A stretch of DNA of 57,563 nucleotides from an uncultured Candidatus Saccharibacteria bacterium (GCA_964610055.1 CAZSUC010000001.1:157304-214866), one strand, 5' to 3'; numbered from the stretch's first letter, positions 18,312-34,010 are shown. A program made the numbers and translations. The notes: a model not told the origin generated them from the sequence alone.

Positions 18312-18710
18312 CTAAACTACTGGAGGAATTTCGTTCCTTGTGTACCCTGCTAAAATCCCTTTCACAATATCAACAATCTCTTTAGGATTGTGCTCACTCT
18401 TTACAATGTACTTAACCGCCCCTTTTGCTAACACCTCTTCCGCGTCATGCTCCCCTGCTAAATTAGTCAGTACGATTACTGGAATGTCTTTTGTTGTCTC
18501 ATCTTTCTTTAAATGATCCAAAACTTCTAATCCATTCATTTCTGGCATCATAATATCCAGCAAAATTAATGTTGGCTTATTCTGTTTTACTGCGTCTAAT
18601 CCTTCTCGTCCATTATGTGCAACATCAACCTCATAACCTTCAAATCCGAACGCTTTTTCGTATAAGCGAGCAATTAACTCATCATCTTCAACAATTAATA
18701 TTTGTGGCAT
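18312..18710 (-). CDS. Single-domain response regulator (CheY-like receiver, no output domain)
   Basis: ILIVEDDE, LILLDIMMPEMNG (phospho-Asp context), VIVLTN, KYIVKS; 132 aa in total, so there is no room for an effector domain. Confidence 0.9.
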   Translation of the reverse strand: MPQILIVEDDELIARLYEKAFGFEGYEVDVAHNGREGLDAVKQNKPTLILLDIMMPEMNGLEVLDHLKKDETTKDIPVIVLTNLAGEHDAEEVLAKGAVKYIVKSEHNPKEIVDIVKGILAGYTRNEIPPVV

Positions 18711-18728
18711 AGGCCAATCATAGCATAA

Positions 18729-19787
18729 TTACGGCTTATTTGCGGCTGGCAAGACTAGCAAAAACGTACTGCCTTGCCCTACTTCTGATCGTTCTAGCGT
18801 TAATGTTCCTCCCATCCCTTTAGCTAATAGCTTAGATATATACAATCCCATACCAGTCCCTCGAGTCATATCTCGGGCTAGAACCTTATCCCCTGCTTGC
18901 TGAAATTTTCTAAACAATAAGCGTTGATTTTCCAGTGAAATCCCTGGTCCTGTGTCTGTTACTCGGATTTCAACCTTATCTTCATTTTGCTCCGCTGCAA
19001 TCACAATTCCGCCTTCATGCGTAAACTTTACGGCATTTGCTGCCAAATTCATTATCACCTGATGTACTCGTAATGGATCAGCTAGCGCCCCAATACTCTC
19101 CCCTTCTACTGGCTCAAACCCTAATACTATCTTCTTGGCCGTCGCTTCAATCTCTAATTCATGCACGACTTGTCTAATCTCCTTCATCACGTCAACTTTT
19201 GTTTTCTCAAATTTCATCTTGCCCAGCTCTAGTTTTGACACATCCAAAAAGTCATTTACGATTGTAATCAGGCGCACGCTTGATTCATAAATATCATGAA
19301 TCATTTGTGCTAAATCCTCATGTCCATGTAAAACGCTGCCATAATACTGCAAAATCATATCCGCACTGCTGCGTATCGCAGTCAATGGGGTTCGTAATTC
19401 ATGGGAAGCAATTACAAAAAATTCTTCTCTTGTTCGCTCTAAAATGCGTCTTTCCGTAATATCTTCCATCAGCACCACAACTCCGTGTGCTTCTTGATCA
19501 GATATGATCGGCGTTAATAACAAGCGGATATATTGAGATTTAGTCTGAATCTCTTTGGGCTTACATTCCTTACTCAAATTATTCATGCATTCCTTGCATA
19601 GTCTCCCCAAGTCAAAAAACTCATTTAATTGCGATACTACGCTTTTATTCGAATCATACTCAAACATCCGAAATAGCTGCCGATTAGTCATTAATGGCTC
19701 ACCTTCTGCACTCATCATGACTAATCCCAAAGGTAAACTATCAATCAAGGCCGCTAACCGCAGTTGGGCTGTATTATCATCTATCAT
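18729..19787 (-). CDS. Cytoplasmic PAS-domain sensor histidine kinase (HisKA plus HATPase_c, no TM segment)
   Basis: H-box ASHELRTPLTAI, N-box MNLAANAVKFT, G1 VTDTGPGIS, G2 GTGMGLYISK. The N-terminal ~110 aa is PAS-like. Confidence 0.9.
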   Translation of the reverse strand: MIDDNTAQLRLAALIDSLPLGLVMMSAEGEPLMTNRQLFRMFEYDSNKSVVSQLNEFFDLGRLCKECMNNLSKECKPKEIQTKSQYIRLLLTPIISDQEAHGVVVLMEDITERRILERTREEFFVIASHELRTPLTAIRSSADMILQYYGSVLHGHEDLAQMIHDIYESSVRLITIVNDFLDVSKLELGKMKFEKTKVDVMKEIRQVVHELEIEATAKKIVLGFEPVEGESIGALADPLRVHQVIMNLAANAVKFTHEGGIVIAAEQNEDKVEIRVTDTGPGISLENQRLLFRKFQQAGDKVLARDMTRGTGMGLYISKLLAKGMGGTLTLERSEVGQGSTFLLVLPAANKP

Positions 19788-21442
19788 CGCACTTGCCGGC
19801 TAATAAACGAAGCTATGACGTATGAGGGCAAGAGTGACAGTGCGATTAAAATTACACTCACTACAAAAGTTAACTGCACCGCTTCACCTACTGCTTTGAC
19901 GATAGTGTCATATGTTGTTCCGACCCACAAAAACCCTGCTATATCCTTATTCACGTCCTCTAAAGGCAAATATGATCCCAGAAATTGTTGATTCAAAATA
20001 TTTGTTATTTTGTTTACTGGCTCTGTGCGATGTTCAGTGATTGTCGCTCTTAAATCATCATCTCCTAAATCAGTTCCAATCCACCTTCCGTCCTCACCAA
20101 CCACTGTGACAGACGATGCCGATAATTGTGTGCCCGCTAAAACCGCCGCATCTAATCCTGTCGATCGTTTAATCCCGTCTACAAACGCATTATCTAATGT
20201 ATTTCCTGCCCAGATAATCGCAAACACCTGATCGTCTATCATAATTGGTGCTGTTGATCGGATTGATAATTGATCAGCTAACGGGCCTGACTGTTTCCAT
20301 ATTCCAGCCGATGATCGTCTTTCTTGTGCGGCTTTAACCAAAGGATCATCTGACCACGATGTCCCCTTCTCTTCCGGATTATCTCCGCTCGCTAATACTA
20401 TCCCTGAGCTATCAAGCACTGCTAATTCTGAAGCTTGTTGGTTAGTTAAATATTCTTGCGCAAAAGTCGCTAACTCACCTTCGTTCCCTTGTTTAATTGC
20501 TTCAACCCATCTCTGATCTTGCGCAATCAATTGGGTAAAATCGGCTAATTCATCCGTTTTCACCTCAAGTAAATAACTCAAGGCTTGCGCGTCAGTTTGT
20601 AATCGACTAACTGCCGAATTTTGTAAGTATCGCAATGCAAATCCGCTAAAAGTTACAGTTGTAATTAAGAAAATAGCCAAAGATACGCTCGTAAATGCCA
20701 AAATTAATTGTGTTTTTAGTCGTCGCAATAAATAACGAACTACCCAAATGACTAACCAAATACTTGCTGCCGTTAAAATCACATGTTCTATCATCCAAGC
20801 CGACCCAAAAGCTGCTCCTAGTTTGTACCATGTCGGATTAACAGAATCGCGCCATAATCTGGCCAACCATACCACTTCATATCCAGCTAACAATGTAAAT
20901 ACCGGTACAGCGTGCCAAACATGCCTTTCTAGCCCTCTTGTTGCTCGTCTGAAATATGCGCTTGCTACTAACAAGGCGGTTATTGCCGGTCCAAGCATGG
21001 TAATCCATGGGCCTGTAATTCCCAGTGGCCATACCGCTGTTAATGGCTTCATATCAAATACTGGTTTTTCTTCCGGTTTTGGTTGCGGCTTGTCTTGCAA
21101 TGTTTCTGGTACCAAGCCTTTTACTTTTGGCTTTTTAAAAATTGGTTGCAACCAAATTGAAGCCGCTAACAGTAAATATCCTGCTGTTCGGACTAATGGC
21201 AACATCGCTGTAAATACTTGGCGCGGTATATTTAACGGCAGTGTTTGGGACAATTCCACGTTTGCCGCGCCAATAAAAAATGATAGTGCTAACAATCCCC
21301 AGCCCAACAATCCCATCATTTTTCGTGGCACAAAGCTTAATCCCCAAGCATCTAAATACAGCCATAATCCCGACAATGAGGCTAACGCTGCTAACAGATA
21401 AACTGCAAAATGGACATTCTCCCAAGCTAAATACATCCACAT
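19784..21442 (-). CDS. Polytopic membrane sensor protein (N-terminal multi-TM region plus TM-flanked Cache-like extracytoplasmic domain), no kinase domain
   Basis: Several hydrophobic helices in aa 1-260. An ~250-aa soluble segment lies between two TM helices. The ORF stops right after the last TM helix, and its stop overlaps the start of the kinase gene (ATGA). Confidence 0.7.
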   Translation of the reverse strand: MWMYLAWENVHFAVYLLAALASLSGLWLYLDAWGLSFVPRKMMGLLGWGLLALSFFIGAANVELSQTLPLNIPRQVFTAMLPLVRTAGYLLLAASIWLQPIFKKPKVKGLVPETLQDKPQPKPEEKPVFDMKPLTAVWPLGITGPWITMLGPAITALLVASAYFRRATRGLERHVWHAVPVFTLLAGYEVVWLARLWRDSVNPTWYKLGAAFGSAWMIEHVILTAASIWLVIWVVRYLLRRLKTQLILAFTSVSLAIFLITTVTFSGFALRYLQNSAVSRLQTDAQALSYLLEVKTDELADFTQLIAQDQRWVEAIKQGNEGELATFAQEYLTNQQASELAVLDSSGIVLASGDNPEEKGTSWSDDPLVKAAQERRSSAGIWKQSGPLADQLSIRSTAPIMIDDQVFAIIWAGNTLDNAFVDGIKRSTGLDAAVLAGTQLSASSVTVVGEDGRWIGTDLGDDDLRATITEHRTEPVNKITNILNQQFLGSYLPLEDVNKDIAGFLWVGTTYDTIVKAVGEAVQLTFVVSVILIALSLLPSYVIASFISRQVR

Positions 21443-21449
21443 AGTCTTC

Positions 21450-24068
21450 TTAGTATATCATCTTCAACCAAGCACTGAGCGTGTTGGTATTGGTTAAACC
21501 TGTTTTGCTTTGCACTATTTGCCCTTTTTCATCAATCACTAGCTGCATTGGCACTGTATCAGCATGTAAAGCCGTCGCTGTTTCTCCAGTTGGATCCGCA
21601 TAGATTGGTATTTGGTAATTTCCTTTAATTTTTAAGGCGTGCGCTCTTATCGCTGATGCTTGCACTAAAATCGGAATAACTCTTTCTTGTTCCTCGGCTG
21701 ATAAATTATTTAAGTAAGATAATTGCTCCCCTGCTTGCGGCGCCCAATCAACTAAGAAACTTATTATTACCGTTTCTCCTTGTTGTAATTCTGCTAAAGT
21801 TTTTACTCCTTCATCACCCCAGACTTGCAATTGCGCCCAATCCAACGTTACTGGGCTATTTTCTTCTGCTACTGCTATGTCCGTAGTTTCTGTTACAGTT
21901 TCATCTGTTTTTTGAATTGAAACTGTCTCTTTCCAAAACTTTGGCGGCACTGGAATATGAAATATGCCCCAATCAATGTATTTTTGCTTTTGCACCGGTA
22001 TTTCAATCTGTAATGCGACGCTTTCCGTTAAAGTGAAAATCTCTGTCTGAACCGGATGAATACGCGGCGCTGTAACTGTTACGTAATAAGTTCCTGGCGG
22101 TAACATATACCTAAATTCTCCCTTCTCTCCCGTCGTTTGCGGATTAATTTGTTGAAATACTTCTGCTGACCAAGGCTCAAAGTAACCCACTGCCGCTTCT
22201 TTGATCCAAATAGTAACTTCTGCGCCTTCCACTGGCTCTCCATCCATCAGCACCTGGCTCCCGGTAATCGCTTTAATTCGTTGAATTACCCTTTCTGTCA
22301 CGTTATTCGCACCATCTTGTGCTCGAAAAGTTAATTCATATTCTCCTGTCATGGACAAGCTAATGGTTCCTGACCATAATCCCGACTCTTCGTTTTTTGT
22401 TAAAGCAAAAACTTGTTCTTCTCCTCCGTTTATTGGCCGAGCAATCACTTCAATCTTAATTGCTCCACCAACTGCTGATACCGTAATCTCTTGATCTAAT
22501 CCGGCCACCACTGCTGTAATTCCAACTGCTTCATCAGTTAGTAATTGTGCCCCAGTCGTATATACTGCTGAACCAACTGCTGGCGGAATTGTATCTAAGA
22601 CCAAAGTGTATGTTTGTGAAAACCCGACATTTCCACTGCTGTCGATAGCTCGCAAGCGCAACGCATAATTATCATCATCTTTTATAACCGGAGTAAATGA
22701 AAATGTTGCTGTTCCTGTTCCTAATCCACGTGCTCCTTGAATACCTATCCAGTTCTTCCCGTCATCTAATGAATACGCCACGCTTCGAACACTAATGTTA
22801 TCCTTAGCAATGCCTGTTAAGGTCGGAGCCTGCGCATAAACCTGCTCCCGCGTACTTGTTAAGCTAATGCTTGGCGGAGTAGTGTCCTGTACAACTCCAA
22901 CTACTGGTTCTGCATCACCTTCGCTGTTACTGCTGGTCGTTCCGCCATTGCTTTTTGTTGTTGCGCTTGATTGTGTCGCTGTATTTGTGGTCGTTGTGCT
23001 GCTGCTCGTATCGCTATCATCTCCTCCTCCACCGCCTCCTCCCCCACTATCTCCGTCATCTGAGCTAGTTTCCGTACTAGTCTTAAATGTATTATCACCA
23101 CTTTCCGCAGACGCTGTCGTCGTGCTGCTTTTAGCTTTAAAATGATATGTTGTGTTAGCACTCAAGCCAGTTAACGTTACGCTGTGACTGGTTGTTAGTG
23201 TGCTGTTAGTGTAATTGCCGCCGTACCCACTTGTTAATCCGTATTCCAATACTGTGCTTGCAGCTAACGTTGTTGTCCACGTAATTGTTGCGCTGCTCGT
23301 AGACACATTTGTTGTACTGACATTGGAAATCGCTAAGGTTGTGCCTGCTTCCGCGGTTGTAAACACTTTGTCATTTGAGGTACTAGTATTTCCCGTTCCG
23401 TCTCGACTTTCTACCTGATAATGATATATCGTTCCCGCTGTTAATCCGGTTACAGACATAGTGTGACTTGTTGTTAATGAGCTGCTTTGCTTGGTAGTGC
23501 CATACGTCGTACTGGTGCCGTATCTGACAACTGTTGTCGCTGCTTCATCTGTTGTCCAAGTGATGCTTGCGCTGGTTTGTGTGACATTTGTTGCTGTGAC
23601 TGCTGAGATAGCCGGCGGAGTTGTATCTCCTCCAATACTCACCGCCGTATCTCCCGAGCAGCTCGTTGCCCCCGACCCATCTCCTGTATCCGCTACCAAT
23701 ACTTCCCAACTGGCTGCTTCTTGAGGAGTTACTCCTGTCTGCACGCTGACATTAAAAGTTTTACTTTCCCTTCCCGCCAACACTCCACCGGTAAACTCAG
23801 CTGTCTGACTCGTACTCTCAACACTCCAGCCACTGCTATTACCGCCTAATACCTGAAAATTATCCGAAGGCGCCGTAATTTTTACCCAAATTGCATCACT
23901 TTCTCCTTCATTGCTTACCGCAAAAGCCAATGTCCCGGTTAAATTTGCATTCATCGATGTTGGACTAACTGACGCTGTGCATCCTGAAACATCCGCTTCT
24001 GCTCGTTGGATCGGCCCAATTAAACCTGTTATTACCGTTACGAGCGTAAATAAAGCTACTTTCTTCAT
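21450..24068 (-). CDS. Secreted multidomain protein: signal peptide, 2 x FN3, S/T/G linker, Ig-like / carboxypeptidase-regulatory-like domains, C-terminal thioredoxin-like (TlpA-like) fold lacking CXXC
   Basis: Signal peptide MKKVALFTLVTVITGLIGPIQRAEA. Two ..TPP.IS.V..TNV...SA.ITWTT...A.T...YG.. FN3 units. GGGGGGG/S/T linker. GEFRYMLPPGTYYVTVTA. C-terminal VIISFLVDWAPQAGEQL...IPIYADP....Y.....P..LVIDEKGQIV. Confidence 0.8.
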   Translation of the reverse strand: MKKVALFTLVTVITGLIGPIQRAEADVSGCTASVSPTSMNANLTGTLAFAVSNEGESDAIWVKITAPSDNFQVLGGNSSGWSVESTSQTAEFTGGVLAGRESKTFNVSVQTGVTPQEAASWEVLVADTGDGSGATSCSGDTAVSIGGDTTPPAISAVTATNVTQTSASITWTTDEAATTVVRYGTSTTYGTTKQSSSLTTSHTMSVTGLTAGTIYHYQVESRDGTGNTSTSNDKVFTTAEAGTTLAISNVSTTNVSTSSATITWTTTLAASTVLEYGLTSGYGGNYTNSTLTTSHSVTLTGLSANTTYHFKAKSSTTTASAESGDNTFKTSTETSSDDGDSGGGGGGGGDDSDTSSSTTTTNTATQSSATTKSNGGTTSSNSEGDAEPVVGVVQDTTPPSISLTSTREQVYAQAPTLTGIAKDNISVRSVAYSLDDGKNWIGIQGARGLGTGTATFSFTPVIKDDDNYALRLRAIDSSGNVGFSQTYTLVLDTIPPAVGSAVYTTGAQLLTDEAVGITAVVAGLDQEITVSAVGGAIKIEVIARPINGGEEQVFALTKNEESGLWSGTISLSMTGEYELTFRAQDGANNVTERVIQRIKAITGSQVLMDGEPVEGAEVTIWIKEAAVGYFEPWSAEVFQQINPQTTGEKGEFRYMLPPGTYYVTVTAPRIHPVQTEIFTLTESVALQIEIPVQKQKYIDWGIFHIPVPPKFWKETVSIQKTDETVTETTDIAVAEENSPVTLDWAQLQVWGDEGVKTLAELQQGETVIISFLVDWAPQAGEQLSYLNNLSAEEQERVIPILVQASAIRAHALKIKGNYQIPIYADPTGETATALHADTVPMQLVIDEKGQIVQSKTGLTNTNTLSAWLKMIY

Positions 24069-24073
24069 CTCTC

Positions 24074-27000: not shown

Positions 27001-30000
27001 TTCCGTCCCCAGTTGCATCGTTAAAGACTAAATAAGTGCCACTCGTGCCATTAAAGCACTCGCCTGTCGTGCAATCACCCACTGCTGCAATATCGCCTGC
27101 CATGCTTTCCCAAGTTAATGTCCCGCTTCCATCACTGGTTAGGACTTGCCCATCTGTGCCGTCATCCGTTGGCCACGTGTAAGTCCCTCCTCCAAACGTT
27201 GTTGTCCCGCCAACTGTTATATTCCCGCTCGCATCAATCACAAACGGCGTCGTATCCCCACTCTCATCATTCACCACCAACGAATTACCCGTCCCCGTAT
27301 TAGTAATTGAAAACACATTTGATCCTGTTACCGCTATATCTGTAGAAGCGTCTAAGGTTAAGGAATCAGCCAAATCGCTGAATCCTAACGAATCGGCCGC
27401 AATGTCTAATGTGACGGCTAATTCCTCTCCGCCCGTTCCGTTGGTAACTGTAATCTTTCCTGCTCCTGCATCTGCAATTGATCCTACATAGTCTCCTGTC
27501 GTGTCTGTACCCAAAGCCACTGTATTAGCGCCAATTGTTGTGACTCCAGCATTGCTAATTGTAATATCTCCACTCATCGCTACGCTTTCCCATGAATCTC
27601 CGTCCGCAATCAATACATTTGCATCAGTCGCTGTCGTTGTCCCTAACGTTGCTCCATTAATCTTGGCCACAGTTAGCGCCGTACTGCCGTCAGTATCTAA
27701 TGTACCGGTAGCATCGCCCGTAAATGTGTGTCCCGATAAAATCACCGTTCCGTCCGCATCTGGTAATGTCCAAGTACGATTACCCGACATGCTCGCCGAT
27801 ATAGCTAACTGTCCCGTGCCGCCATCGTCATAAAATGTTAGGTATGATCCGCCGTCTGAAGTCCCGTCAAAACAGTCTCCAGTGTCACAATTGCCAACTT
27901 TTGTCACATCTCCTGTACCGGCTCCAACACCTGTTACTGCTTGCCAGGTTAAATTCCCTGCTCCGTCCGTCACTAACACTTGTCCGCTTGATCCTCTTCC
28001 GTCCGGCCAAATATATCCGTATTGGTTAAAATACACTTTCCCGTTTGATCCCGAATCATCTTCAACTGCAAATAAGATATTCCCGCTCGGATCTTTAATT
28101 GATAGTTGAGAACCGTCCGCAATATTCAAATTTGGAGTCGTTCCTGAGAAATATAGCGTTGTCCCGTGAGTTACGTTGCCAGTTACATCAAAACAATCTC
28201 CGCTCGTACAATCTCCAACTGTATTAATGTCTCCGGCAATCCCCCCTCCTGTTATATTTGCCCAAGCCAAAGTGCCGTCTGTTTGAGCCGTTAACACGTA
28301 ATTATTACTTCCGATTGTCGTCGGCCAAGTGTAAGTTAAGCTGTTTAAGGTTGTGGTTTGACCAGTTGCAACCATTAAATCGCCGCCAACAGTCACGTCT
28401 CCAGCGCTATCAACCACAAATTCAGTTCCATTGGCATTTACTGTAAACGAATCCTCGCTGCCAGTATTCACCACGCTAATATCCGCTCCGGCTACTAACG
28501 ACGTGCCAGTTGTTGAATTGCCTACTGTCAGTGTATTGGTATCCGTTACTCCGATGGTTGTCGCCGCATCCAAAGCTAATGCGTCCTTTAACTCAGTGAA
28601 ATCAAGGCTATCAGCCGTAATATCAACCGTAATAGCTGCTCCCTCTGTTCCAGAATTATTCACTGTAATCCGGCTTGTACCGCTCACGGGTGTAATTGTT
28701 GCCACGTAATTACCTGTTGTATCAGTGCTCAGTGTTACCGAATTTGGCTGTATAGTCGTTAATCCAGCCTGCGTTAAGCTTATATCACCTGTTATTCCTC
28801 TCGTCTGCCAACTACTGCCATCACCAATCAAAATATTTCCCGCCGTTGCCGTAGCGCTGCCAATCGTAACATTCTTAATTTTATTCACTGTGACGTTGGA
28901 TAAGTACCCGGATACATCACCAGCCACACTTAAAGCGCCTTCCAAAGTACTTACTGTCGTTGAATTAACTGTTGTGACGTCATTTAAGGCACCTACGCTA
29001 ATACTTGTTAATCCGACCAGATCCGCATCCAAATTAAAGTGATTAGTGCCGTCTAGTGTAATATTTGTACCGCCATAATATGTTGGCGCTTCCGTTTCGC
29101 TTGAACATGCCCACACCGCATTTGTATCATCCCATCGTAATATCTGATCATCCGCGCATGTTCCTAACAGTTGTAATCCATTCGCTGTTAACGCCATTCC
29201 TGATGCTGTTTGCGTTTCTGTGTCGTTTACACCTGTTAATAATTGAATTGCTAAACTGCCTCCGCTCGTATCTAAGCCATTGCCTGTGTTGACTGCAATT
29301 GTCGGCGTGGCTCCTTCTCCGCTGCCGCCAGTTACCGTAATGCTGTCGTCTGCTGCGCTTAATGACGCCACGTAATTACCCGCCGTTTGCGTACCTAAAT
29401 CAATCGCATCGTTGGCAATTGTGATACTTGTTGAGCCTGTTGTTCCTAAAGTCGTGGTAGTTACTTCTCCGGTTAATTGTTGACCGCTCAAAATGATAGT
29501 TCCACTCGAATTAGGCAAAGTCCACGTTCGGTTAGACGACATTGATGATGAAATTTGAAGAGTACCCGTTCCGCCGTCATCATAAAACGTCAAAGCCGTG
29601 CCACCGTCCGAAGTCCCGTCAAAACAATCCCCGCCGGCACAATCTCCAACGCTACCCACGTCTCCAACTAATCCAGCTTCTGTTGCTGTCGACCAATTCA
29701 AAGTACCATCACCATTGCTAATTAATACTTGATTAGATGTTCCGTAAGTTGACGGCCATTCATACTCCACTGAATTTAAAGTCACGTGATTTGCTCCGCT
29801 TACATACTCTGCGCCAAATAAGATATGTCCGCTCGCGTCTTTAACATAAAAAGTAGAATTATCCGCTACTGTTAATGTTGTCCCTGATCCTGCTGCTGTG
29901 AAACAATCACCGGACGCGCAGTCTCCAACTGCTGAAATATCACCTAATCCCATTGAACCCGGATTACCCCATGTTAATCCACCTGCTCCATCAGTAGTTA

Positions 30001-33000
30001 AGAGATAATCTTCTCCTCCTGCATCGCCTGGCCAAGTGTATGTTTGGCCATTTAATGTTGTTGTGCTCCCAAAAGTTACACTTCCTGCCGCATCAATCAC
30101 AAACGGCGTCGTATCCCCACTCTCATCATTCACCACCAAAGAATTACCCGTCCCCGTATTAGTAATTGAAAACACATTTGATCCCGTTACCGCTATATCT
30201 GTAGAAGCGTCTAGGGTTAAAGCGTCTTTTAATTCACTAAAATCTAATCCGTCCGCCGTCACTGCCACTCCACTACTGCCCACAGTTAAGGTTGAATCAG
30301 CCGCTGTCACCGCTACCCCACTTGAAGTTACGCTAATACCATTACCGGCCTTAACCGATAATGTTGGCGTTGAGCCATGTGCTGGCGCGCTAATTGTATT
30401 TAAACCATTCCCGGCTGTAATACTAGCAACATAATTTCCACTCGTATCAACACTCAAAGATACCGATCCATCCGTAATGCTTGTTACTCCAGCAGACGAT
30501 AATTCCAAAACACCCGTTACTGGCACAGAGCTAAATCCAGTCCCGTCAGCTACCAAAATATTTCCGCTGTCGTTGCTGCTCATTTTAATCTGAGCCCCGA
30601 CTGTCACGTTCCCCGCTGCGTCAATTATAAAAGGTGTTGAATCACCTGATTCATCGTTCACTGTTAAGGAGCTTCCTGTTCCAGTATTAGTAATTGTTAG
30701 CGCGCTTCCTGATCCACTTTTTGCAATTGTCAGCGTATTGGCATCGGCGGCCGTTATTGTTGTTGGCGCGTCCAATGTTAATGCGTCCGCAATTTTAGAA
30801 AAATTCAAACTATCATCTGCTATCTGCAATGTCGTCCCAGATAGTTGTAATATCGATCCGTCCGGTGTACGCCATGCTGTCTGCTGAGTAGTGCCGTCCC
30901 AAGCCAATAATTGGGATGTCGAAGGGCTTGAAGGTACACCTGCTTCTAGAGAAAAAGTTACTGTATCAGTCGCTGATACAGCCGTCGCTAAACCAGTGCC
31001 TGCCACAAAAGTTAGTTCGTCATTACTGTCAATATCTTCACTCGTTGTTCCGTCTGTTATTGAAAAGCCTTGAAAGCCTGTCGCGTTACAGTCTTGCCAA
31101 GTAAATCCTCCAGTTGAGCTATTGTAAATTAAACAATAACCATTTGACGGAGAGTTAGAGGCTAATAGCATTGATTCTTCAATTGCATCTGCTTGAATTG
31201 TTAATGCTCCAGACGTACTAATAGTTGCATCTCCGCTTACTACGGCTGAATTCCATTGGCTTCCATTTCCAACTAATACCGCGCCACTACTAGCAGTTGT
31301 TGTACCTAACGTTGCGCCGTTTATTTTTGCTACACTAACTGACGTACTCCCGCTCGTTGATAAGGTGCCAGTTAAATCTCCAATTAAATTATGTCCTGAT
31401 AAAATAACTGTTCCGCTCGCATTTGGTAATACGATATTTCGATTTGCGTCTGCATCGGCTGAAGACAGATTAATTGTATAACTGCCTGCTGAAGGACCTT
31501 TAAAGTACAAACTATCCGAACCAGTTGCATCAACCGTAAAACAACTACCCGTATCGCATGTCCCAACATCGCGAATATCTCCCGTCACACCCGCTGCGCT
31601 TGGATTTATCCATGTTAATTGTCCTGAACCGTTAGTTGCTAATATGAAGTTATTGTCTCCGCTCGCTGCTGGCCAAGTATAGGTTAAATTATTTAATGTT
31701 GTTGTGCCTCCAACCGTTAAATCACCGTCTTCATCTATTTCAAATACCGATGTATTACTTGTTGGTGTCCCTTTCGCTATCCCGAACAAAGCCTGATTAG
31801 CGCTTGGTGTAGCCCCAACTAAAACTTCAAACATTGGAATATTAACATTTGAAGAAGATGTATTTTCTGTTTGAAAAACTAATCTGCTATTGCTATCTTT
31901 CCCGTATTCAATGCTCCAATCTGCATCGCTCCCTAAGTTTAAAGCCACATCATCAGCAATTGTCCATTCGCCTGTTATTGTTTCTGCGTCATCGTCAAAA
32001 ATAGCCGCTTCAATCGTATTTTCAGTGGTTGCATCTATTGTTGTGAGTCCATTTATAGCTGTAACGGAATTTAATTCGCTTGCAATCGAAAATTCAGTTC
32101 CGTCCAGTTCTAAGTCATCCCCGGCCGTATAGGCTGTATCGGTGCTACTAATAGTTAAAGTTCCGGTAGTCTTATTCAAAGATACCGTTGTAGCGCCTTC
32201 TGAGGCGACTGTCAGCACTTCATCGGCACTATTAGCAGTAAATGTATCTGTGCCAACTTTAATTGCTTGTAGGGCATTCTGAGGCGTTATATCTTGCCCC
32301 ATTGCTGTGTTGCTAATGGTTAATCCATTAATCTCAATTCCTTCACCTGCTTGAAATTGGATATCTCCAGTTTGTCCTTGTACGGAATTTACGACATTAG
32401 ACGCAAAAATTCGTCCATTACCCAGATTTATATCAATTCCTTCACCAGTAACATTGCCTTGTAACGTTAACTCGCCCTCCACTTGCATTTGATCATTGAT
32501 TAACGTTGGAACGTTAACTTCAAAAAATCTATCCAGTTCTTCTGTTGTTAAAGCCAAAACTCTAGGATTTTTATTATTCTCATCGCCATATGCCAAACGA
32601 GTTTCTTCTGTTGGAATCATCTCTTCCTCTAATCCAAACCACTCATTCAAATAAGATAATTTATTGCTAAATGAAGCACCGGATAGCTTCATTAAATGCA
32701 ATGAAGTCGTTACTAATATTCCAATCGCAAATAAAGACAGTACTGCTGGAGCTAATCGTAAGCGATGATGGGCAGTCGTTGCTGGTATTTGCCGATGATA
32801 TTTCTGATTTACTTCATTCTCATTAAAAGGTGAATAATATGTCTTAGTTTGATACTTACTTTGAGCAACCGTCTCATTAGCTAAAATAGGATCATTATTA
32901 CTGGTCTGTTTCTGCCAAGTTGCTAGATACGTCGGTGAGAACACTACTAAATCATCTTCAACTTTCGATAAAGATTTAATTTTTTGGTTAGACTCCTGCA

Positions 33001-33433
33001 ATGCTGTTTCTATAGGCAAAATTTCCTTTGAAATATTTTCCTCTTTGAGCGGTATTGCCTGTTCTGTTGTCTTCTCTGGATTTAAAAATGCCTCTAAAAC
33101 TGTCTGCGTATAAAGTCTTTCTCCATTATCATCTCTTAACGGAGATATTTTTCCTTGCGTTTCATATCTACGCAAAGTACTAGTTGAGATATTTAACTGT
33201 TTTGCCGCCTCAGAAATAGTAAGAGGGCGGTTATTTTTGTACCTTTCTAATTCAATTACGGAAAATAATCTGTGTCCGCCATCTGATCGTTGAGCTGTAA
33301 TTATCCCCTTTTTCTCCCATCTTCTTACAGTATCCACAGATACACCTAAAATTTCGGCAGCGCGCCGAATTGAGACAAAATCGCCCTTTAATGGTGTTTC
33401 TTGGGGCATGAAGGAAGGATTAATCCTAGGCAT
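24074..33433 (-). CDS. Giant (3119 aa) protein: two N-terminal MerR/excisionase-type HTH domains, one TM helix, ~2870-aa repetitive ectodomain
   Basis: aa ~19-66: VSIRRAAEILGVSVDTVRRWEKKGIITAQRSDGGHRLF. aa ~71-116: LTISEAAKQLNISTSTLRRYETQGKISPLRDDNGERLYT. TM LAPAVLSLFAIGILVTTSLHLM at aa ~226-247. Then come repeated modules (..TYTWP....G..L.....G.L.W, VG[DT]C..G.CF, TLP..[SD]GT[IV]). The ORF is uninterrupted over 9.4 kb. Confidence 0.9.
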   Translation of the reverse strand: MPRINPSFMPQETPLKGDFVSIRRAAEILGVSVDTVRRWEKKGIITAQRSDGGHRLFSVIELERYKNNRPLTISEAAKQLNISTSTLRRYETQGKISPLRDDNGERLYTQTVLEAFLNPEKTTEQAIPLKEENISKEILPIETALQESNQKIKSLSKVEDDLVVFSPTYLATWQKQTSNNDPILANETVAQSKYQTKTYYSPFNENEVNQKYHRQIPATTAHHRLRLAPAVLSLFAIGILVTTSLHLMKLSGASFSNKLSYLNEWFGLEEEMIPTEETRLAYGDENNKNPRVLALTTEELDRFFEVNVPTLINDQMQVEGELTLQGNVTGEGIDINLGNGRIFASNVVNSVQGQTGDIQFQAGEGIEINGLTISNTAMGQDITPQNALQAIKVGTDTFTANSADEVLTVASEGATTVSLNKTTGTLTISSTDTAYTAGDDLELDGTEFSIASELNSVTAINGLTTIDATTENTIEAAIFDDDAETITGEWTIADDVALNLGSDADWSIEYGKDSNSRLVFQTENTSSSNVNIPMFEVLVGATPSANQALFGIAKGTPTSNTSVFEIDEDGDLTVGGTTTLNNLTYTWPAASGDNNFILATNGSGQLTWINPSAAGVTGDIRDVGTCDTGSCFTVDATGSDSLYFKGPSAGSYTINLSSADADANRNIVLPNASGTVILSGHNLIGDLTGTLSTSGSTSVSVAKINGATLGTTTASSGAVLVGNGSQWNSAVVSGDATISTSGALTIQADAIEESMLLASNSPSNGYCLIYNSSTGGFTWQDCNATGFQGFSITDGTTSEDIDSNDELTFVAGTGLATAVSATDTVTFSLEAGVPSSPSTSQLLAWDGTTQQTAWRTPDGSILQLSGTTLQIADDSLNFSKIADALTLDAPTTITAADANTLTIAKSGSGSALTITNTGTGSSLTVNDESGDSTPFIIDAAGNVTVGAQIKMSSNDSGNILVADGTGFSSVPVTGVLELSSAGVTSITDGSVSLSVDTSGNYVASITAGNGLNTISAPAHGSTPTLSVKAGNGISVTSSGVAVTAADSTLTVGSSGVAVTADGLDFSELKDALTLDASTDIAVTGSNVFSITNTGTGNSLVVNDESGDTTPFVIDAAGSVTFGSTTTLNGQTYTWPGDAGGEDYLLTTDGAGGLTWGNPGSMGLGDISAVGDCASGDCFTAAGSGTTLTVADNSTFYVKDASGHILFGAEYVSGANHVTLNSVEYEWPSTYGTSNQVLISNGDGTLNWSTATEAGLVGDVGSVGDCAGGDCFDGTSDGGTALTFYDDGGTGTLQISSSMSSNRTWTLPNSSGTIILSGQQLTGEVTTTTLGTTGSTSITIANDAIDLGTQTAGNYVASLSAADDSITVTGGSGEGATPTIAVNTGNGLDTSGGSLAIQLLTGVNDTETQTASGMALTANGLQLLGTCADDQILRWDDTNAVWACSSETEAPTYYGGTNITLDGTNHFNLDADLVGLTSISVGALNDVTTVNSTTVSTLEGALSVAGDVSGYLSNVTVNKIKNVTIGSATATAGNILIGDGSSWQTRGITGDISLTQAGLTTIQPNSVTLSTDTTGNYVATITPVSGTSRITVNNSGTEGAAITVDITADSLDFTELKDALALDAATTIGVTDTNTLTVGNSTTGTSLVAGADISVVNTGSEDSFTVNANGTEFVVDSAGDVTVGGDLMVATGQTTTLNSLTYTWPTTIGSNNYVLTAQTDGTLAWANITGGGIAGDINTVGDCTSGDCFDVTGNVTHGTTLYFSGTTPNLNIADGSQLSIKDPSGNILFAVEDDSGSNGKVYFNQYGYIWPDGRGSSGQVLVTDGAGNLTWQAVTGVGAGTGDVTKVGNCDTGDCFDGTSDGGSYLTFYDDGGTGQLAISASMSGNRTWTLPDADGTVILSGHTFTGDATGTLDTDGSTALTVAKINGATLGTTTATDANVLIADGDSWESVAMSGDITISNAGVTTIGANTVALGTDTTGDYVGSIADAGAGKITVTNGTGGEELAVTLDIAADSLGFSDLADSLTLDASTDIAVTGSNVFSITNTGTGNSLVVNDESGDTTPFVIDASGNITVGGTTTFGGGTYTWPTDDGTDGQVLTSDGSGTLTWESMAGDIAAVGDCTTGECFNGTSGTYLVFNDATGDGTLQIADLTAVAGRTWTLPDADGTIIVSGHTFTGDVTATLGANNTTALTIAADVVDGTELADAITLDSATLVFDDGTNTLLTLTDDGTTGSLSMTGGLTVEGTTTFNSLTYTWPSGPIGGNDYVLTTQTDGTLAWTDISNLASADIETVGTCESGACFTAADTSDYSLYFEGATADDYEIILVAADATLSDKTITLPNLSGTVALLGASGQTGDFTTSGLATLGSLVVDTSTLAVNASGYENKVGVGTATPEDLFEIQGAEGTDAVLVLDADDGDDTADTWFIKSLASTNGLSFVNGTTTVASLSSGGALTLNQVAVGSGNTGSSAASNLNSIFGTNNTDNVNNSGQRNSIVGYNNSFSGSTNSSRNSIFGSDNTISGAVQHTYNGVFGASNTLTATTGAFIFGRGITNAVDNSLMIGPSDAAKMTILSSGSLGIGDTSPDAKLEILSTTEQLRLTYTDDSVDSRFTVDSSGNLTIDNTGTKTTIADDLAISGDDLYMATNTAGYILVADGTNYNPVAMSGDVSLDGTGAVTIADEAVDESDLDISGSAVDGYCLKWSDTSGKMEWTDCSSAFSSFIISDDETVPTTQTIDDGETITFADTSTIDLAVAATNTVSASVMADSLDFSHLEDTLNLDNSTSMVLGAYDYDINLDSTGEFAIQDGGSDVVKVDADGKTTFYDDVDWSLGAGEDLSIAAIEAPTSDMVTITNASYGATSSADGLQINYTAASDSASGDTNMGINLAMTSSGDSGDTLYGVNIAGLAAGSDATEYALVIGANWDRGLYIQSASEFTEAVTYSGNARPTRQETLSPEYEGASLSGDGSSNSGTMTSDFCDNDATNGIPAVNTSYCGTSDTHSYYSWTTTESTSQDYDIWIRWRVPDNFDSWAASNPVQVYGRRTDATNGSVQVSFYDTNNAADAGITAAEAAGTASTWTQLSDTPTGTYTAGEYVTIQVHMTADQSDSVQVGEINLNYLSNN
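27230..27361 (-). repeat. Copy A of a 132-nt near-identical (129/132) dispersed intragenic repeat
   Basis: Aligns to 30089-30220 at a fixed offset of 2859 nt, with mismatches only at 27281, 27326 and 27355. Encodes LTLDASTDIAVTGSNVFSITNTGTGNSLVVNDESGDTTPFVIDA. Confidence 0.85.
30089..30220 (-). repeat. Copy B of the 132-nt near-identical intragenic repeat
   Basis: See copy A. The surrounding repeat units are much more diverged at the DNA level. Confidence 0.85.
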
Positions 33434-34010
33434 TGGTTGCTTAAAAATATAAGCAAACCTATGTCATGCATAATTATATCATATCTAAATCCCTAAATTA
33501 ATAACTCAATCATAACAACTAATCCTGGTATTTAATCCAACTTTTGTTGGTAATAAATATTAATTTTTAAGTAGTTATATTTGTTTATATCTCTCATTCT
33601 TCGCGGTTTTAATAGGCAATTAACATTGTCCGCACTTTAATTTAATTATCGCTTAATCTCTTCTTGGTTATTCTTGTTCCTCCTTAAGACAGATAAAAAA
33701 ACAGTCATGGTTACATAAGCTGGTATAGCTATAATTTAATCGTCATCAGCTTGATCTCTGTAATGTATAATTATGTTTCTATTTGATTTCGCCCAAGCCT
33801 GTTTTTTACTAACGACTAGACCGAACCAAAACTAGGCATTAGTTATCACTCTTTCTAAAATATATGCAAATGCATACCAAATAAGCTATGCATAAATTGT
33901 CAGATGCCAAAATATCTTGCGGACACAAAAATTACTCACTGGTTTTACTGCTAATAAATAATATTATTGGCGCATTATCTTTTATATCCAGGAAAGATTA
34001 TAATATACAC

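Follow-up and report, generated by a model that had tools for sequence, protein, structure and literature searches.

Single-pass transmembrane transcription regulators such as ToxR, CadC and TcpP are widespread, according to a survey (Demey et al. 2023, PMC10269533) that does not refer to MerR or to Patescibacteria in its text. In these regulators, a DNA-binding domain at the cytoplasmic N-terminus is joined through a single helix to an extracytoplasmic domain, an arrangement also seen in a giant protein encoded in the window (the whole 57,563 nt stretch of DNA analysed here). Their DNA-binding domain is of the OmpR/PhoB type, whereas the head of the giant, predicted to bind DNA, consists of two tandem MerR/BldC-like winged helix-turn-helix (HTH) domains, and in the family of the giant the ectodomain can reach thousands of residues of fibrous repeats.

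BldC from Streptomyces and RacA from Bacillus are MerR-like proteins that have the DNA-binding domain only. Each HTH unit of the giant superposes on them and, as in BldC and RacA, has neither an effector domain nor a long dimerisation helix, but the giant fuses two such units in one chain that is tethered to the membrane. BldC binds direct repeats, while the candidate site of the giant is a palindrome. Membership of the BldC family is not supported, as the giant scores 31 bits against NCBIfam HTH_BldC (NF033787), far under the cut-off of 77, despite the high structural similarity. Two MerR-type HTHs that act as a pseudo-dimer within a single chain have a precedent in the HspR fused-homodimer type (NCBIfam NF047377). 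However, the giant scores only 33 bits against this model, far under the cut-off of 300, and HspR is a soluble heat-shock repressor, unlike the membrane-bound giant.

LuxP-LuxQ, TorT-TorS, HbpS-SenS and YycH/I-WalK are two-component systems with an extracytoplasmic accessory protein. The four genes that follow the giant gene resemble them, as an exported protein adjoins a PAS/Cache-type membrane sensor that would feed a HisKA kinase, here closest to the PnpS, PhoR and WalK models. They differ in three respects: a cysteine-less thioredoxin fold closes the FN3/Ig chain of the accessory protein, no transmitter is present in the Cache sensor and the regulator is always receiver-only. Like CheY, DivK and Spo0F, the receiver stands alone with an intact pocket, and its output must necessarily go via protein contacts or phosphotransfer, but its conserved neighbours in loci with the Cache gene include no chemotaxis, flagellar, Hpt or cell-cycle partner. 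The thioredoxin domain is related in fold and sequence to ResA, DsbE/CcmG and TlpA. However, all 54 members examined in the FN3 family have a conserved W-x-P-x-x-x-E-Q where CxxC would be expected, and the domain is thus not a redox enzyme.

Organization of the five-gene block

The host genome is that of a small member of the Patescibacteria (CPR), with Candidatus Andersenbacteria as its nearest relatives. Five ORFs with junctions of exactly 5, 7, -4 and 18 nt were listed on the minus strand of the window (Table 1), reproducing the tight co-directional packing reported in the original prediction, which had read the block as one module made up of an HTH-HTH-TM giant, an FN3 protein, a Cache sensor, a soluble PAS histidine kinase and a receiver-only regulator. 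Pfam and hydropathy agreed with all five domain readings, with the PAS domain of the kinase weakly supported. When all five proteins were searched with Pfam, no DNA-binding domain was found besides the two HTHs of the giant, as predicted, and the antisense ORFs had zero Pfam matches.

Internal promoters or terminators, which would split the block, were not detected. Promoter-like and terminator-like matches in the block did not exceed the shuffled expectation, and none fell at a junction. The tight packing makes co-transcription of the five genes likely in this genome. With a junction of 5 nt between the giant and FN3 genes and no sign of an internal promoter, the giant gene and the four genes after it probably form one transcript here, and may be functionally linked.

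Table 1. Features of the five-gene block and its surroundings in the window
Feature	Position	Strand	Basis or remarks
Giant, single-pass membrane protein, 3119 aa as ORF	24074..33433	-	ORF and translation
Two tandem MerR/BldC-like winged HTHs, aa 20-118	33080..33376	-	Pfam, AF2, Foldseek; cytoplasmic
Sole TM helix of giant, aa 227-247	32693..32755	-	Hydropathy, translation
Giant ectodomain, ~2870 aa	24077..32692	-	Composition, repeats; no Pfam domain
Exported FN3 protein, 872 aa (cassette gene 1)	21450..24068	-	Pfam, AF2, conserved next to Cache gene
Thioredoxin-fold domain of FN3 protein	21453..21827	-	W-x-P-x-x-x-E-Q in place of W-C-x-x-C
Cache membrane sensor, 552 aa (cassette gene 2)	19784..21442	-	Pfam, hydropathy, relatives
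Soluble histidine kinase, 352 aa (cassette gene 3)	18729..19787	-	Divergent PAS, HisKA, HATPase_c
Receiver-only response regulator, 132 aa (cassette gene 4)	18312..18710	-	Response_reg only (Pfam)
Giant2 (context), 3179 aa	8518..18057	-	One membrane helix aa 121-148; three Laminin_G_3; no HTH
Palindrome right half AACCAATGCCTAGGAT, candidate operator	33421..33436	-	Contains ATG at 33433
TATAAT -10-like hexamer (33473-33478) and TATGCATGACATAGGT (33457-33472)	33457..33478	-	Read from sequence

A giant membrane protein with a tandem-HTH head

The true start of the giant is probably Met9 (ATG 33409-33407), giving 3111 aa, because homologs begin there and the ATG at 33433 falls inside a conserved upstream DNA element. 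Pfam matched two MerR/HTH_17 units at aa 20-115 (MerR 1.1e-25, 89.6 bits over two stretches; HTH_17 7e-16), revealing a MerR-type N-terminal winged HTH, and AF2 modelled the tandem stretch with a pLDDT of ~90. In Foldseek comparisons, an HTH unit superposed on BldC with an rmsd of 1.4 A over 46 aa and 32% identity. Foldseek and profile searches also matched the head to DNA-bound BldC, to the RacA-DNA complex and to MerR-family DNA-binding domains, and PDB profile and fold matches to CueR, NmlR, MtaN and CadR were returned. The giant has no MerR coiled-coil dimerisation helix or effector-binding domain. Instead, the second HTH, which stands in for the dimer partner, is followed by a linker of ~100 aa predicted to be disordered (AF2 pLDDT <50) and the membrane helix.

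With a cytoplasmic N-terminal DNA-binding-type domain, one membrane helix and an extracytoplasmic C-terminal part, the giant has a ToxR-like arrangement. As its head is of the MerR/HTH_17 type and Pfam found no match to Trans_reg_C, the OmpR/PhoB-type winged helix, it is analogous to ToxR and not a ToxR family member. The ectodomain, in which no Pfam domain was found, is rich in T, G, S, A and D and contains seven repeats of a Y-x-W-P ... G-x-C-x-x-G-x-C-F module, whose paired cysteines are confined to the C-terminal part of the giant.

When the N-terminal 330 aa of the giant were used as a query, matches were returned in 1712 representative clusters. We sampled the best 150 of these matches and four giant homologs, 152 proteins in all, of which 118 have exactly one membrane helix, located at approximately aa 125-280 in nearly all of the 118. 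Total length in this sample ranges from 96 to 5145 aa. The recognition-helix residues of the head are nearly invariant across the family, and the ectodomains are hypervariable, extending from almost nothing to ~5000 aa. Three giant homologs (P0121, P0122 and P0124) share the same N-terminal HTH Pfam domains. Two HTHs joined to one membrane helix, as originally described for the giant, are thus a real and recurrent architecture in Patescibacteria, and the giant is a member of a very large Patescibacteria family of predicted single-pass membrane proteins. This family looks undescribed.

A palindrome at the 5' ends of tandem-HTH genes

Tandem-HTH genes carry a conserved palindrome of ~30 bp, ACCTATGCAnnGGTTAACCnnTGCATAGGT, between the promoter and the start codon. 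At least one half-site was found within -120 to +30 in 36/46 family genes, with the element at fixed positions, -34 and -17. The half-site density in that interval is 9.9 per kb, compared with 0.14 elsewhere in the same loci (a ~70-fold enrichment) and 0.05 in loci anchored on the Cache gene, although the motif was derived from the very upstream set in which enrichment was measured. In other loci, the element occupies -34 to -5 relative to the ATG, and TTGACA boxes occur 70-80 nt upstream. No conserved RNA structure was found in the element.

The window's palindrome is degenerate, with an intact right half and a displaced left half. The right half, AACCAATGCCTAGGAT, is the only match to CCTATGCATAGG at two or fewer mismatches in the 57.5-kb window, and a second, degenerate copy of the element, TATGCATGACATAGGT, directly follows the TATAAT-like hexamer, which the promoter scan missed because the -35 is weak. 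The window element runs from after the TATAAT-like box to the start codon, and does not occupy a 19-20 bp -35/-10 spacer as a MerR operator does.

The position of the palindrome at the family's own 5' ends suggests autoregulation, and its conservation, together with the fold of the head, leads us to infer that the head binds DNA. Most likely, the giant would be a membrane-tethered one-component regulator of ToxR/CadC-like logic, with its MerR-type head binding the palindrome as its own operator. Further copies of the palindrome were found in intergenic DNA 0.4-1.8 kb upstream of tandem-HTH genes and, in the two loci where tRNA genes were found (L021 and L026), the extra copies lie within ~250 nt of a tRNA gene. 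The element may therefore not be purely autoregulatory.

Two other explanations of the head and its palindrome were considered. The head might be a DNA-to-membrane tether and not a transcription regulator. It could act either in RacA-like chromosome anchoring or by holding its own gene at the membrane during synthesis and export of a long ectodomain. A tether would be in keeping with the RacA-DNA complex being matched in profile and fold searches and with the palindrome adjoining the gene's own start codon, and a nearly invariant head on wholly different ectodomains suits generic anchoring better than signal-specific regulation. However, the ectodomain is tiny in many members of the family (96-300 aa total), which need no tether during export, and the element covers the transcription start, the 5' UTR and the ribosome-binding site, the classic place for a repressor operator. 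As no polar-anchor partner is evident either, we consider a tether unlikely.

We regard as quite unlikely that the palindrome has nothing to do with the HTH head and is either bound by a different factor or is a repeat, mobile or associated with recombination, that travels along, leaving the head to bind other targets or none. The additional upstream copies, two sets of them near tRNA genes, could be accounted for in this way, as could the degenerate state of the window's copy, and other MerR-type and HTH_17 genes do occur in the same neighbourhoods. Against this, the enrichment is seen at fixed distances from the start codon, in one family and across several Patescibacteria classes, while the element is rare in Cache loci of the same phylum, and a palindrome suits a protein that has two similar HTH units.

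A conserved four-gene signalling cassette

The FN3 protein begins with a signal-like helix detected by hydropathy, followed by a beta-sandwich, two FN3 domains, a low-complexity linker, Ig-like domains and a cysteine-less thioredoxin fold, an order supported by the AF2 model (mean pLDDT 78.8). Pfam matched fn3 and Pur_ac_phosph_N, with Redoxin falling just below the cut-off (25.5 versus 26.6 bits), and the thioredoxin domain had weak NCBIfam matches to dsbE, ResA and StoA. AF2 modelled this domain at aa 748-871 (pLDDT ~85-90) as beta-alpha-beta-alpha-beta-alpha-beta-beta-alpha. The window sequence has W-A-P-Q-A-G-E-Q in place of W-C-x-x-C, and across 54 family members the aligned motif stretch is free of cysteine, confirming that the fold lacks its active-site cysteines, as had been proposed.

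In the Cache protein, approximately seven helices are followed by an extracytoplasmic dCache_3 domain (45.7 bits, cut-off 25.7; sCache_3_3 41.2), a last helix and the stop codon. Hydropathy placed the membrane helices that flank the Cache fold before aa 272 and at aa 520-545. There is no transmitter or output domain, as the chain stops 7 residues past the last helix, and seven aligned relatives stop at the same place. All 51 full-length metagenome relatives are 500-570 aa. Given the shared length and end, the missing transmitter is not a frameshift artefact, and the description of this protein as a Cache-type membrane sensor was correct.

The start of the kinase gene overlaps the stop of the Cache gene by 4 nt. 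Its product contains HisKA (56.7 bits) and HATPase_c (89 bits) with intact boxes (H129 in SHELRTP, N-box at 247, G1 at 278 and G2 at 310), and hydropathy found no membrane helix in either the kinase or the receiver. The original designation as a soluble PAS histidine kinase held for the solubility and the HisKA/HATPase_c domains, while the PAS domain is weakly supported. Five PAS families match aa 10-114 below threshold, a region that is also spanned by full-length alignments with the PnpS, PhoR and WalK models. In the receiver, Response_reg is the only Pfam domain and the phospho-acceptor pocket is intact (D9, D10, D52, T82 and K104), in agreement with its designation as receiver-only. All 77 family members share D9, D52 and K104.

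We examined 74 metagenome loci from Patescibacteria that were anchored on the Cache protein, 70 of them non-duplicate. The FN3/thioredoxin gene was co-directional and upstream of the Cache gene in 39/47 loci, a kinase gene was within six genes of it in 31/33 and a receiver-only gene was present in 29/33, with kinase and receiver co-occurring in 28/33. The receivers were 121-178 aa in 69/71 complete genes. Beyond the four core families, no protein family was found in more than 10 Cache loci. In all six neighbourhoods examined, the FN3 homolog adjoins Cache, and the genes upstream of it are unrelated (T2SSE, glycosyltransferases, lipases, spermine synthase). We conclude that the FN3/pseudo-thioredoxin, Cache, kinase and receiver genes are a conserved four-gene cassette, always with a predicted stand-alone receiver as output. 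This cassette looks undescribed.

For signalling, we infer contacts of the Cache protein with both the FN3 protein and the kinase. The exported FN3/Ig protein, with its redox-dead thioredoxin fold serving as a binding module, may assist the output-less 7TM-Cache sensor outside the cytoplasm, as an accessory protein or by presenting a ligand. The sensor would hand the signal to the kinase, which would phosphorylate the stand-alone receiver, and the receiver would contact other proteins or serve as an intermediate in a phosphorelay, and would not act on DNA. As the kinase in the window's lineage is soluble and translationally coupled to the sensor, the pair could be a split sensor kinase. In most relatives, the kinase is itself a full membrane sensor with HisKA_7TM, HAMP or dCache_1, and this reading is consequently limited to the Andersenbacteria-like lineage.

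Relationship between the giant and the cassette

Approximately 120 related loci, anchored on either the Cache gene or the tandem-HTH gene, were compared. A tandem-HTH protein was found in none of the 70 non-duplicate Cache-anchored loci, and neither a Cache nor an FN3 protein in any of the ~47 tandem-HTH-anchored species-level loci, all from Patescibacteria. Any kinase plus receiver within 10 kb was seen in only two of these ~47 loci; for giants longer than ~3300 aa, the 10-kb flank stops short of the downstream genes. No two-component system was found downstream of the giant homologs P0121, P0122 and P0124.

In the closest syntenic relative, locus L011, a homolog of giant2 (41% identity to the window's giant2 over 256 aa, E 1e-49) begins 5 nt after the HTH-giant gene, with no cassette between them, and the divergent ATP-synthase operon adjoining the HTH-giant is retained. 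As the HTH-giant is followed directly by a giant2 homolog in L011, the cassette lies between the two giants only in the window genome. The five-gene order is therefore not conserved in related genomes. Of the predicted five-gene module, four genes (FN3, Cache, kinase and receiver) are conserved together and the giant is not part of the set. We consider it likely that two independent units, the HTH-giant and the four-gene cassette, were juxtaposed in this lineage specifically to give the block.

The originally suggested control of the giant's HTH end by the receiver is unsupported by the comparative data, as giant and cassette were not seen together in any of the loci compared. Control of the HTH end by ectodomain engagement, the other original suggestion, would be a matter of the giant family alone. 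That the five genes are one module, in which the phosphorylated receiver docks on the HTH end as its DNA-binding output, would accord with the tight junctions free of terminator-like sites, with DNA-binding domains borne by the giant alone, with a receiver that lacks an output domain here and in every relative, and with four of 47 Cache loci (L096, L118, L123 and L165) in which the FN3 gene closely follows a large co-directional gene for a surface protein, truncated at the N-terminus by the contig or locus end such that an HTH head is possible, but it is very improbable given the mutual absence of the two units in the loci compared, the three giant homologs without a downstream two-component system, the L011 synteny showing the cassette inserted between giant and giant2, and a receiver family that stays with the cassette where the giant is absent and so must have another partner.

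Under the juxtaposition of two units, the cassette would have come to separate the HTH-giant from giant2, the ancestral partner downstream of it, and probably depends on the promoter of the giant gene for its transcription. If there is a regulatory link, its direction would then be from the HTH head to expression of the two-component system, and not from the receiver to the head. A broader proposal, speculative and rather unlikely, is that tandem-HTH proteins provide surface-to-DNA signalling throughout Patescibacteria, with engagement of the ectodomain altering occupancy of the shared ~30 bp palindrome by the head. If so, engagement, for example host-cell contact, might act by clustering, tension or proteolytic release of the head, and all paralogs would feed one common operator code. 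The same operator would also drive the cassette here, and a second sensing layer would be activated upon host contact. Giant2, a second giant surface protein encoded 254 nt downstream of the receiver gene, has its own TATAAT-like box.

Composition of the five-gene block

The original prediction described five co-directional genes, encoding an HTH-anchored giant surface protein, an exported FN3/Trx protein, a Cache sensor, a histidine kinase and a receiver-only regulator, as a single surface-sensing module. ORF calling reproduced this arrangement exactly, with junctions of 5, 7, -4 and 18 nt, and the domain readings of all five proteins were borne out by Pfam. The giant contains two MerR/HTH_17 units (aa 20-115), the second protein fn3, Pur_ac_phosph_N and a near-threshold Redoxin match, the third dCache_3, the fourth HisKA and HATPase_c, and the fifth Response_reg with no other domain. 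For the PAS domain assigned to the kinase, support is limited to sub-threshold matches and full-length alignments with the PnpS, PhoR and WalK models. By hydropathy, the giant has a single membrane helix (aa 227-247), the FN3 protein has a signal-like helix, and the Cache sensor has approximately seven helices ahead of the Cache domain and one behind it; the kinase and receiver have none. The catalytic residues of the kinase and receiver are intact. Promoter-like and terminator-like matches did not exceed the shuffled expectation and none was at any junction. ORFs antisense to the five genes have no family matches and were set aside.

For the FN3 protein, Cache sensor, kinase and receiver, the best homologs come from Candidatus Andersenbacteria assemblies and from other Patescibacteria. 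The window also includes housekeeping genes (ClpP, RNase Y, ATP synthase, trigger factor, H+-PPase, NusA and tRNAs), and probably belongs to a small CPR chromosome. Sequencing runs SRR8925806 and SRR8925775 contain this locus as well. A second copy of the two-component system at the left end of the window was considered and rejected; three ORFs there (549, 339 and 132 aa) resemble the two-component genes in length and are unrelated to them, having no Pfam match or encoding an N_methyl pilin-like protein and an HNH protein, respectively. A group I intron at 592-808 (+; Rfam 66 bits against a gathering score of 50) adjoins the HNH-endonuclease-like ORF (101-499, -) and a partial tRNA at the window edge (1-53, -).

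Features of the window and of related loci
Feature	Location	Strand	Description
Giant	24074-33433	-	ORF calling, 3119 aa
FN3/Trx protein	21450-24068	-	ORF calling, 872 aa
Cache sensor	19784-21442	-	ORF calling, 552 aa
Histidine kinase	18729-19787	-	ORF calling, 352 aa
Receiver-only regulator	18312-18710	-	ORF calling, 132 aa
Second giant (giant2)	8518-18057	-	3179 aa, three Laminin_G_3 domains, weak TafC-fimbrial match
Palindrome right half AACCAATGCCTAGGAT	33421-33436	-	Intact; contains the ATG called as the giant start (33433)
TATAAT box, then degenerate second element copy	33457-33478	-	Read from sequence
Large upstream surface-protein gene, L096	3-7142		Co-directional with FN3/Trx
Large upstream surface-protein gene, L118	1-1566		Co-directional with FN3/Trx
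Large upstream surface-protein gene, L123	1-5871		Co-directional with FN3/Trx
Large upstream surface-protein gene, L165	3-5249		Co-directional with FN3/Trx

Conservation of gene order

Gene order was compared using three anchors, namely homologs of the FN3 protein, the Cache sensor and the giant. In 6/6 neighbourhoods of high-coverage FN3-protein homologs, the FN3/Trx gene is followed directly by a Cache gene, and the genes upstream of the pair are unrelated in every case (a T2SSE ATPase, glycosyltransferases, GDSL lipases, or a spermine-synthase-like or beta-lactamase-like gene). A 2744-aa protein encoded 1.6 kb upstream in locus L010 was rejected as an HTH protein, as it has a short N-terminal tail, then a membrane helix, and no HTH.

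When a profile built from seven Cache sensors was used to query metagenome contigs, 74 loci were returned, 70 of them non-duplicate, and their ORFs were called and searched with the window proteins. An FN3/Trx gene is upstream and co-directional in 39/47 Cache loci, a kinase is no more than six genes away in 31/33, and a receiver-only gene is present in 29/33, with kinase and receiver found together in 28/33. A tandem-HTH protein was found in 0/70 Cache-anchored loci, and all-against-all clustering revealed no fifth family in more than 10 of the Cache loci. Only four giant homologs were detectable, three of which share the N-terminal HTH domains, and none has a two-component system downstream.

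As the neighbourhoods of none of the three anchors keep the order beyond the window's genome, the five-gene module fails the gene-order test that the original prediction had set. Four of its genes are conserved together as a cassette, of which the giant is not part, and on present evidence the block as proposed is not a real functional unit. In a single streamlined genome, tight packing of genes into an operon is no evidence that they function together, and here the block dissolves once relatives are compared.

A caveat comes from four Cache loci (L096, L118, L123 and L165), in which a large co-directional surface-protein gene lies directly upstream of FN3/Trx, with the N-terminus of the product beyond the contig or locus end. 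The contigs with such upstream ORFs are Ga0214473_10007161, Ga0182027_10023139, Ga0182027_10001090 and JACCDR011735694.1. The protein in L096 is collagen-like, and those in L096, L123 and L165 show weak similarity by blastp to the C-terminal, tail-fibre-like region of P0124, one of the giant homologs. The large upstream ORFs in Cache loci have no similarity to the window giant, and were rejected as its relatives.

A probable insertion between two giant genes

The closest homolog of the giant is P0121 (3260 aa), found in L011. L011 and the window have the same divergent neighbours, three small genes and then ATP synthase alpha. In L011, a gene for a 1091-aa protein follows P0121 after a 5-nt gap. 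This protein was rejected as a homolog of the FN3 protein (E 0.43), and is homologous to the second giant of the window (41% identity over 256 aa and 38% over 264 aa; E 1e-49). The common arrangement is therefore ATP synthase, a divergent HTH-giant and a giant2-like gene. From this comparison, the four-gene cassette appears to be an insertion between the two giants that is present in the window's genome only. A separate 254-nt region that includes a perfect TATAAT precedes the gene for the second giant, a protein with repeated W-D-G-G-G-x-x-N-x-W-S...N-W modules.

The tandem-HTH family

A word-indexed search with the N-terminal 481 aa of the giant returned no matches; short HTH scores fall under the database-wide E-value threshold. 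An exhaustive HMMER search of representatives with aa 1-330 was used instead; 1712 representative clusters matched at E <= 1e-3, of which 358 reached E <= 1e-10. The match lies at the extreme N-terminus in almost every one of the best 150. Exactly one membrane helix, nearly always within approximately aa 125-280, is predicted in 118 of 152 family proteins examined (the best 150 matches and the four giant homologs), which range in total length from 96 to 5145 aa. Their ectodomains nearly all lack Pfam matches, with sporadic Collagen, LVIVD, beta-propeller and LytR_C domains. The ectodomain of the window giant is rich in T, G, S, A and D, and its seven repeats contain paired cysteines, consistent with a position outside the cytoplasm.

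In a profile scan covering one genome per species, approximately 47 tandem-HTH loci were found, all in Patescibacteria (Daviesbacteria, Woesebacteria, Andersenbacteria, Chisholmbacteria, Pacebacteria and Saccharibacteria), and matches outside Patescibacteria had one HTH only. For the longest giants in these loci, the 10-kb flanks examined stop short of the genes downstream. A phage origin was rejected, with only 9 weak matches among 2.9 million viral contigs.

In the AlphaFold2 model, the head comprises two winged HTH units (pLDDT approximately 90), with a disordered linker after them. Both units can be superposed on DNA-bound BldC (rmsd 1.4 A), RacA and MerR-family domains, and the recognition-helix residues, S-[IV]-D-T-[VI]-R-R-W and S-x-S-T-L-R-R, are almost invariant across the family.

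A palindromic element upstream of tandem-HTH genes

K-mer counting on 46 regions upstream of tandem-HTH genes singled out CCTATGCATAGG and its variants. A match with no more than two mismatches is present inside the 300 nt upstream of 24/46 genes (approximately 1.2 expected from the density in the same loci), and a looser half-site pattern matches between -120 and +30 in 36/46, at 9.9 per kb versus 0.14 per kb in the rest of the same loci and 0.05 per kb in the 74 Cache loci, an enrichment that is optimistic because the same genes served for both discovery and testing of the motif. The two-mismatch matches are mostly at fixed positions, -34 and -17, and this fixed spacing, together with the independent negative set, makes a chance origin unlikely.

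When aligned, the element is an approximately 30-bp palindrome, ACCTATGCAnnGGTTAACCnnTGCATAGGT, located just upstream of tandem-HTH membrane-protein genes across Patescibacteria (L016-L060, and 33407-33480, -, in the window). It ends a few bases ahead of the start codon, overlapping the ribosome-binding site, and TTGACA boxes are found 70-80 nt upstream. A Saccharibacteria variant, ACTATGCATAAGCTTTCTTAACAG, is at approximately -73. An RNA hairpin sequestering the ribosome-binding site was considered and rejected. RNAalifold found no consensus pairs in 18 aligned 5' regions, and a protein-binding DNA site is therefore the better reading; there was no Rfam match at the palindrome region. The true start of the giant is probably at 33409, because its homologs start at the residue corresponding to Met9 and share the M-P-x-x-x-P-(x)5-V-S-I spacing with it. 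A start over-extended into the upstream element is also seen in L027.

Extra near-perfect copies of the palindrome are found in intergenic positions 0.4-1.8 kb upstream of HTH genes in L016, L021, L024, L026, L027, L029, L030, L031, L036, L037 and L045. In L021 and L026, loci in which tRNA genes were found, copies are within approximately 250 nt of a tRNA-Arg or tRNA-Pro gene, and in L024 a copy is just past a PIN toxin/HTH_17 antitoxin-like gene pair. The extra copies may mark a wider regulon. We infer that the giant head would bind the candidate operator and autoregulate.

The four-gene cassette

In the model of the FN3/Trx protein (mean pLDDT 78.8), a signal helix comes first, then a beta-sandwich, a pair of FN3 domains, a low-complexity linker and Ig-like domains, with a thioredoxin fold (aa 748-872) at the end. 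The thioredoxin domain had been called redox-dead, and its motif, W-A-P-Q-A, indeed lacks the active-site cysteines. Cysteine is absent at the CxxC position in 54/54 family members, most of which have a conserved W-x-P-x-x-x-E-Q. The fold has been retained in a role other than that of a redox enzyme. Foldseek with the whole model returned only generic multi-Ig/FN3 chains with low TM-scores.

The N-terminal membrane domain of the Cache protein has no Pfam match and is strongly conserved (H-F-A, W-L-Y-x-D-A-W, R-A-T-x-G-L-E-x-H and Y-L-L-K-R). Its cytoplasmic loops carry the motifs RATRGLERH and YLLRRL, and the Cache domain itself covers aa 274-510. This seven-helix domain is unrelated to the HisKA_7TM of neighbouring kinases (hhalign probability 0.4%). 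As the Cache protein always ends right after the last helix, it is not a frameshifted kinase. Its downstream neighbour varies among relatives, and may be a HisKA_7TM-PAS, HAMP or dCache_1-HAMP kinase, a periplasmic binding protein or a CHASE-PAS protein. Nearly all loci also have one or two receiver-only proteins (121-178 aa), in which D9, D52 and K104 are invariant. A short, soluble kinase (352-367 aa) is found in the window and its Andersenbacteria relative, and the window kinase gene overlaps the Cache gene by 4 nt, suggesting a split sensor kinase in this lineage.

The original prediction had allowed for a different partner for the receiver. No pilus, motility or Hpt gene is conserved with the receiver in the clustered Cache loci. 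In the closest relative, a gene for an MshEN-T2SSE (PilB-like) ATPase is just upstream of the cassette (L003 5195-6865; L004 1849-3519), and the pilin-like ORF of the window is at 897-1916; across other loci, no consistent pilus link with the cassette was seen.

Small genes for 23S_rRNA_IVP/bAvd-like four-helix bundles are found inside the cassette in L003 (11152-11532) and L007 (12251-12619), in the FN3-Cache or Cache-kinase gap, and small ORFs of 121-150 aa occupy the same position in L102, L117, L130 and L150-L152. In the Andersenbacteria relative, the cassette is closely followed by an apparent diversity-generating retroelement (L003 13660-19270) comprising an FGE-sulfatase/CLec-type target protein, a Bro-N protein, bAvd and an RVT_1 reverse transcriptase.

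Two probably independent units

The best-supported reading is that two independent units, the giant and the cassette, are juxtaposed in the window's genome. They would probably be co-transcribed, and any regulatory link would lead from the HTH and operator of the giant to expression of the cassette. The HTH head could be a tether, RacA-like or holding its own gene at the membrane during export, and the invariance of the head, while the ectodomains vary without limit, is in its favour; we consider this a serious but unlikely alternative. That the receiver acts on the HTH end of the giant, as originally proposed, is very improbable because the giant HTH and the cassette partners never co-occur elsewhere.

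Patescibacteria (CPR) make up a large part of bacterial diversity, have tiny genomes and are thought to live on other cells. To our knowledge, almost nothing is known of contact sensing and gene regulation in them. The locus points to two recurrent, apparently undescribed parts of their signalling repertoire. One is a membrane-tethered DNA-binding head that occurs in over 1700 sequence clusters, is fused to surface domains ranging across all sizes and has a candidate operator in common. In the other, the four-gene cassette, a redox-dead thioredoxin-fold protein and a transmitter-less Cache sensor are beside a kinase with a stand-alone receiver as its sole output. Both are open to cheap experiments, such as EMSA on a defined 30-bp site (ACCTATGCATTGGTTAACCAATGCATAGGT), phosphotransfer assays and pairwise interaction tests.

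Relationship to known systems

The cassette resembles accessory-protein-assisted two-component systems such as LuxPQ, TorTS and HbpS-SenS, and differs from them in its cysteine-less thioredoxin fold, Cache sensor without a transmitter and receiver-only output. A stand-alone receiver as output would be analogous to CheY, DivK and Spo0F. The giant differs from the ToxR family in the type of DNA-binding domain, and is thus not a member. Nor is it a classical MerR regulator, as it has no coiled coil or effector domain and its operator position differs, and it fails the curated BldC model. Its architecture is that of a transmembrane transcription regulator as defined by Demey et al. 2023 (PMC10269533). 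That general survey was the nearest work found in the full-text literature, in which no description of the giant family or the cassette was found, and both are apparently undescribed. A 2026 preprint on a CPR pilus proved unrelated to either unit.

Several of the loci used here, including L016, L017, L019, L021-L023 and others from 'binchicken'/SRP-coassembly MAGs, are labelled 'uncultured Gammaproteobacteria'. Their gene content and homologs are those of Patescibacteria, and they seem to be mislabelled; CAYFQP010000003.1, for example, and L012 are one and the same contig.
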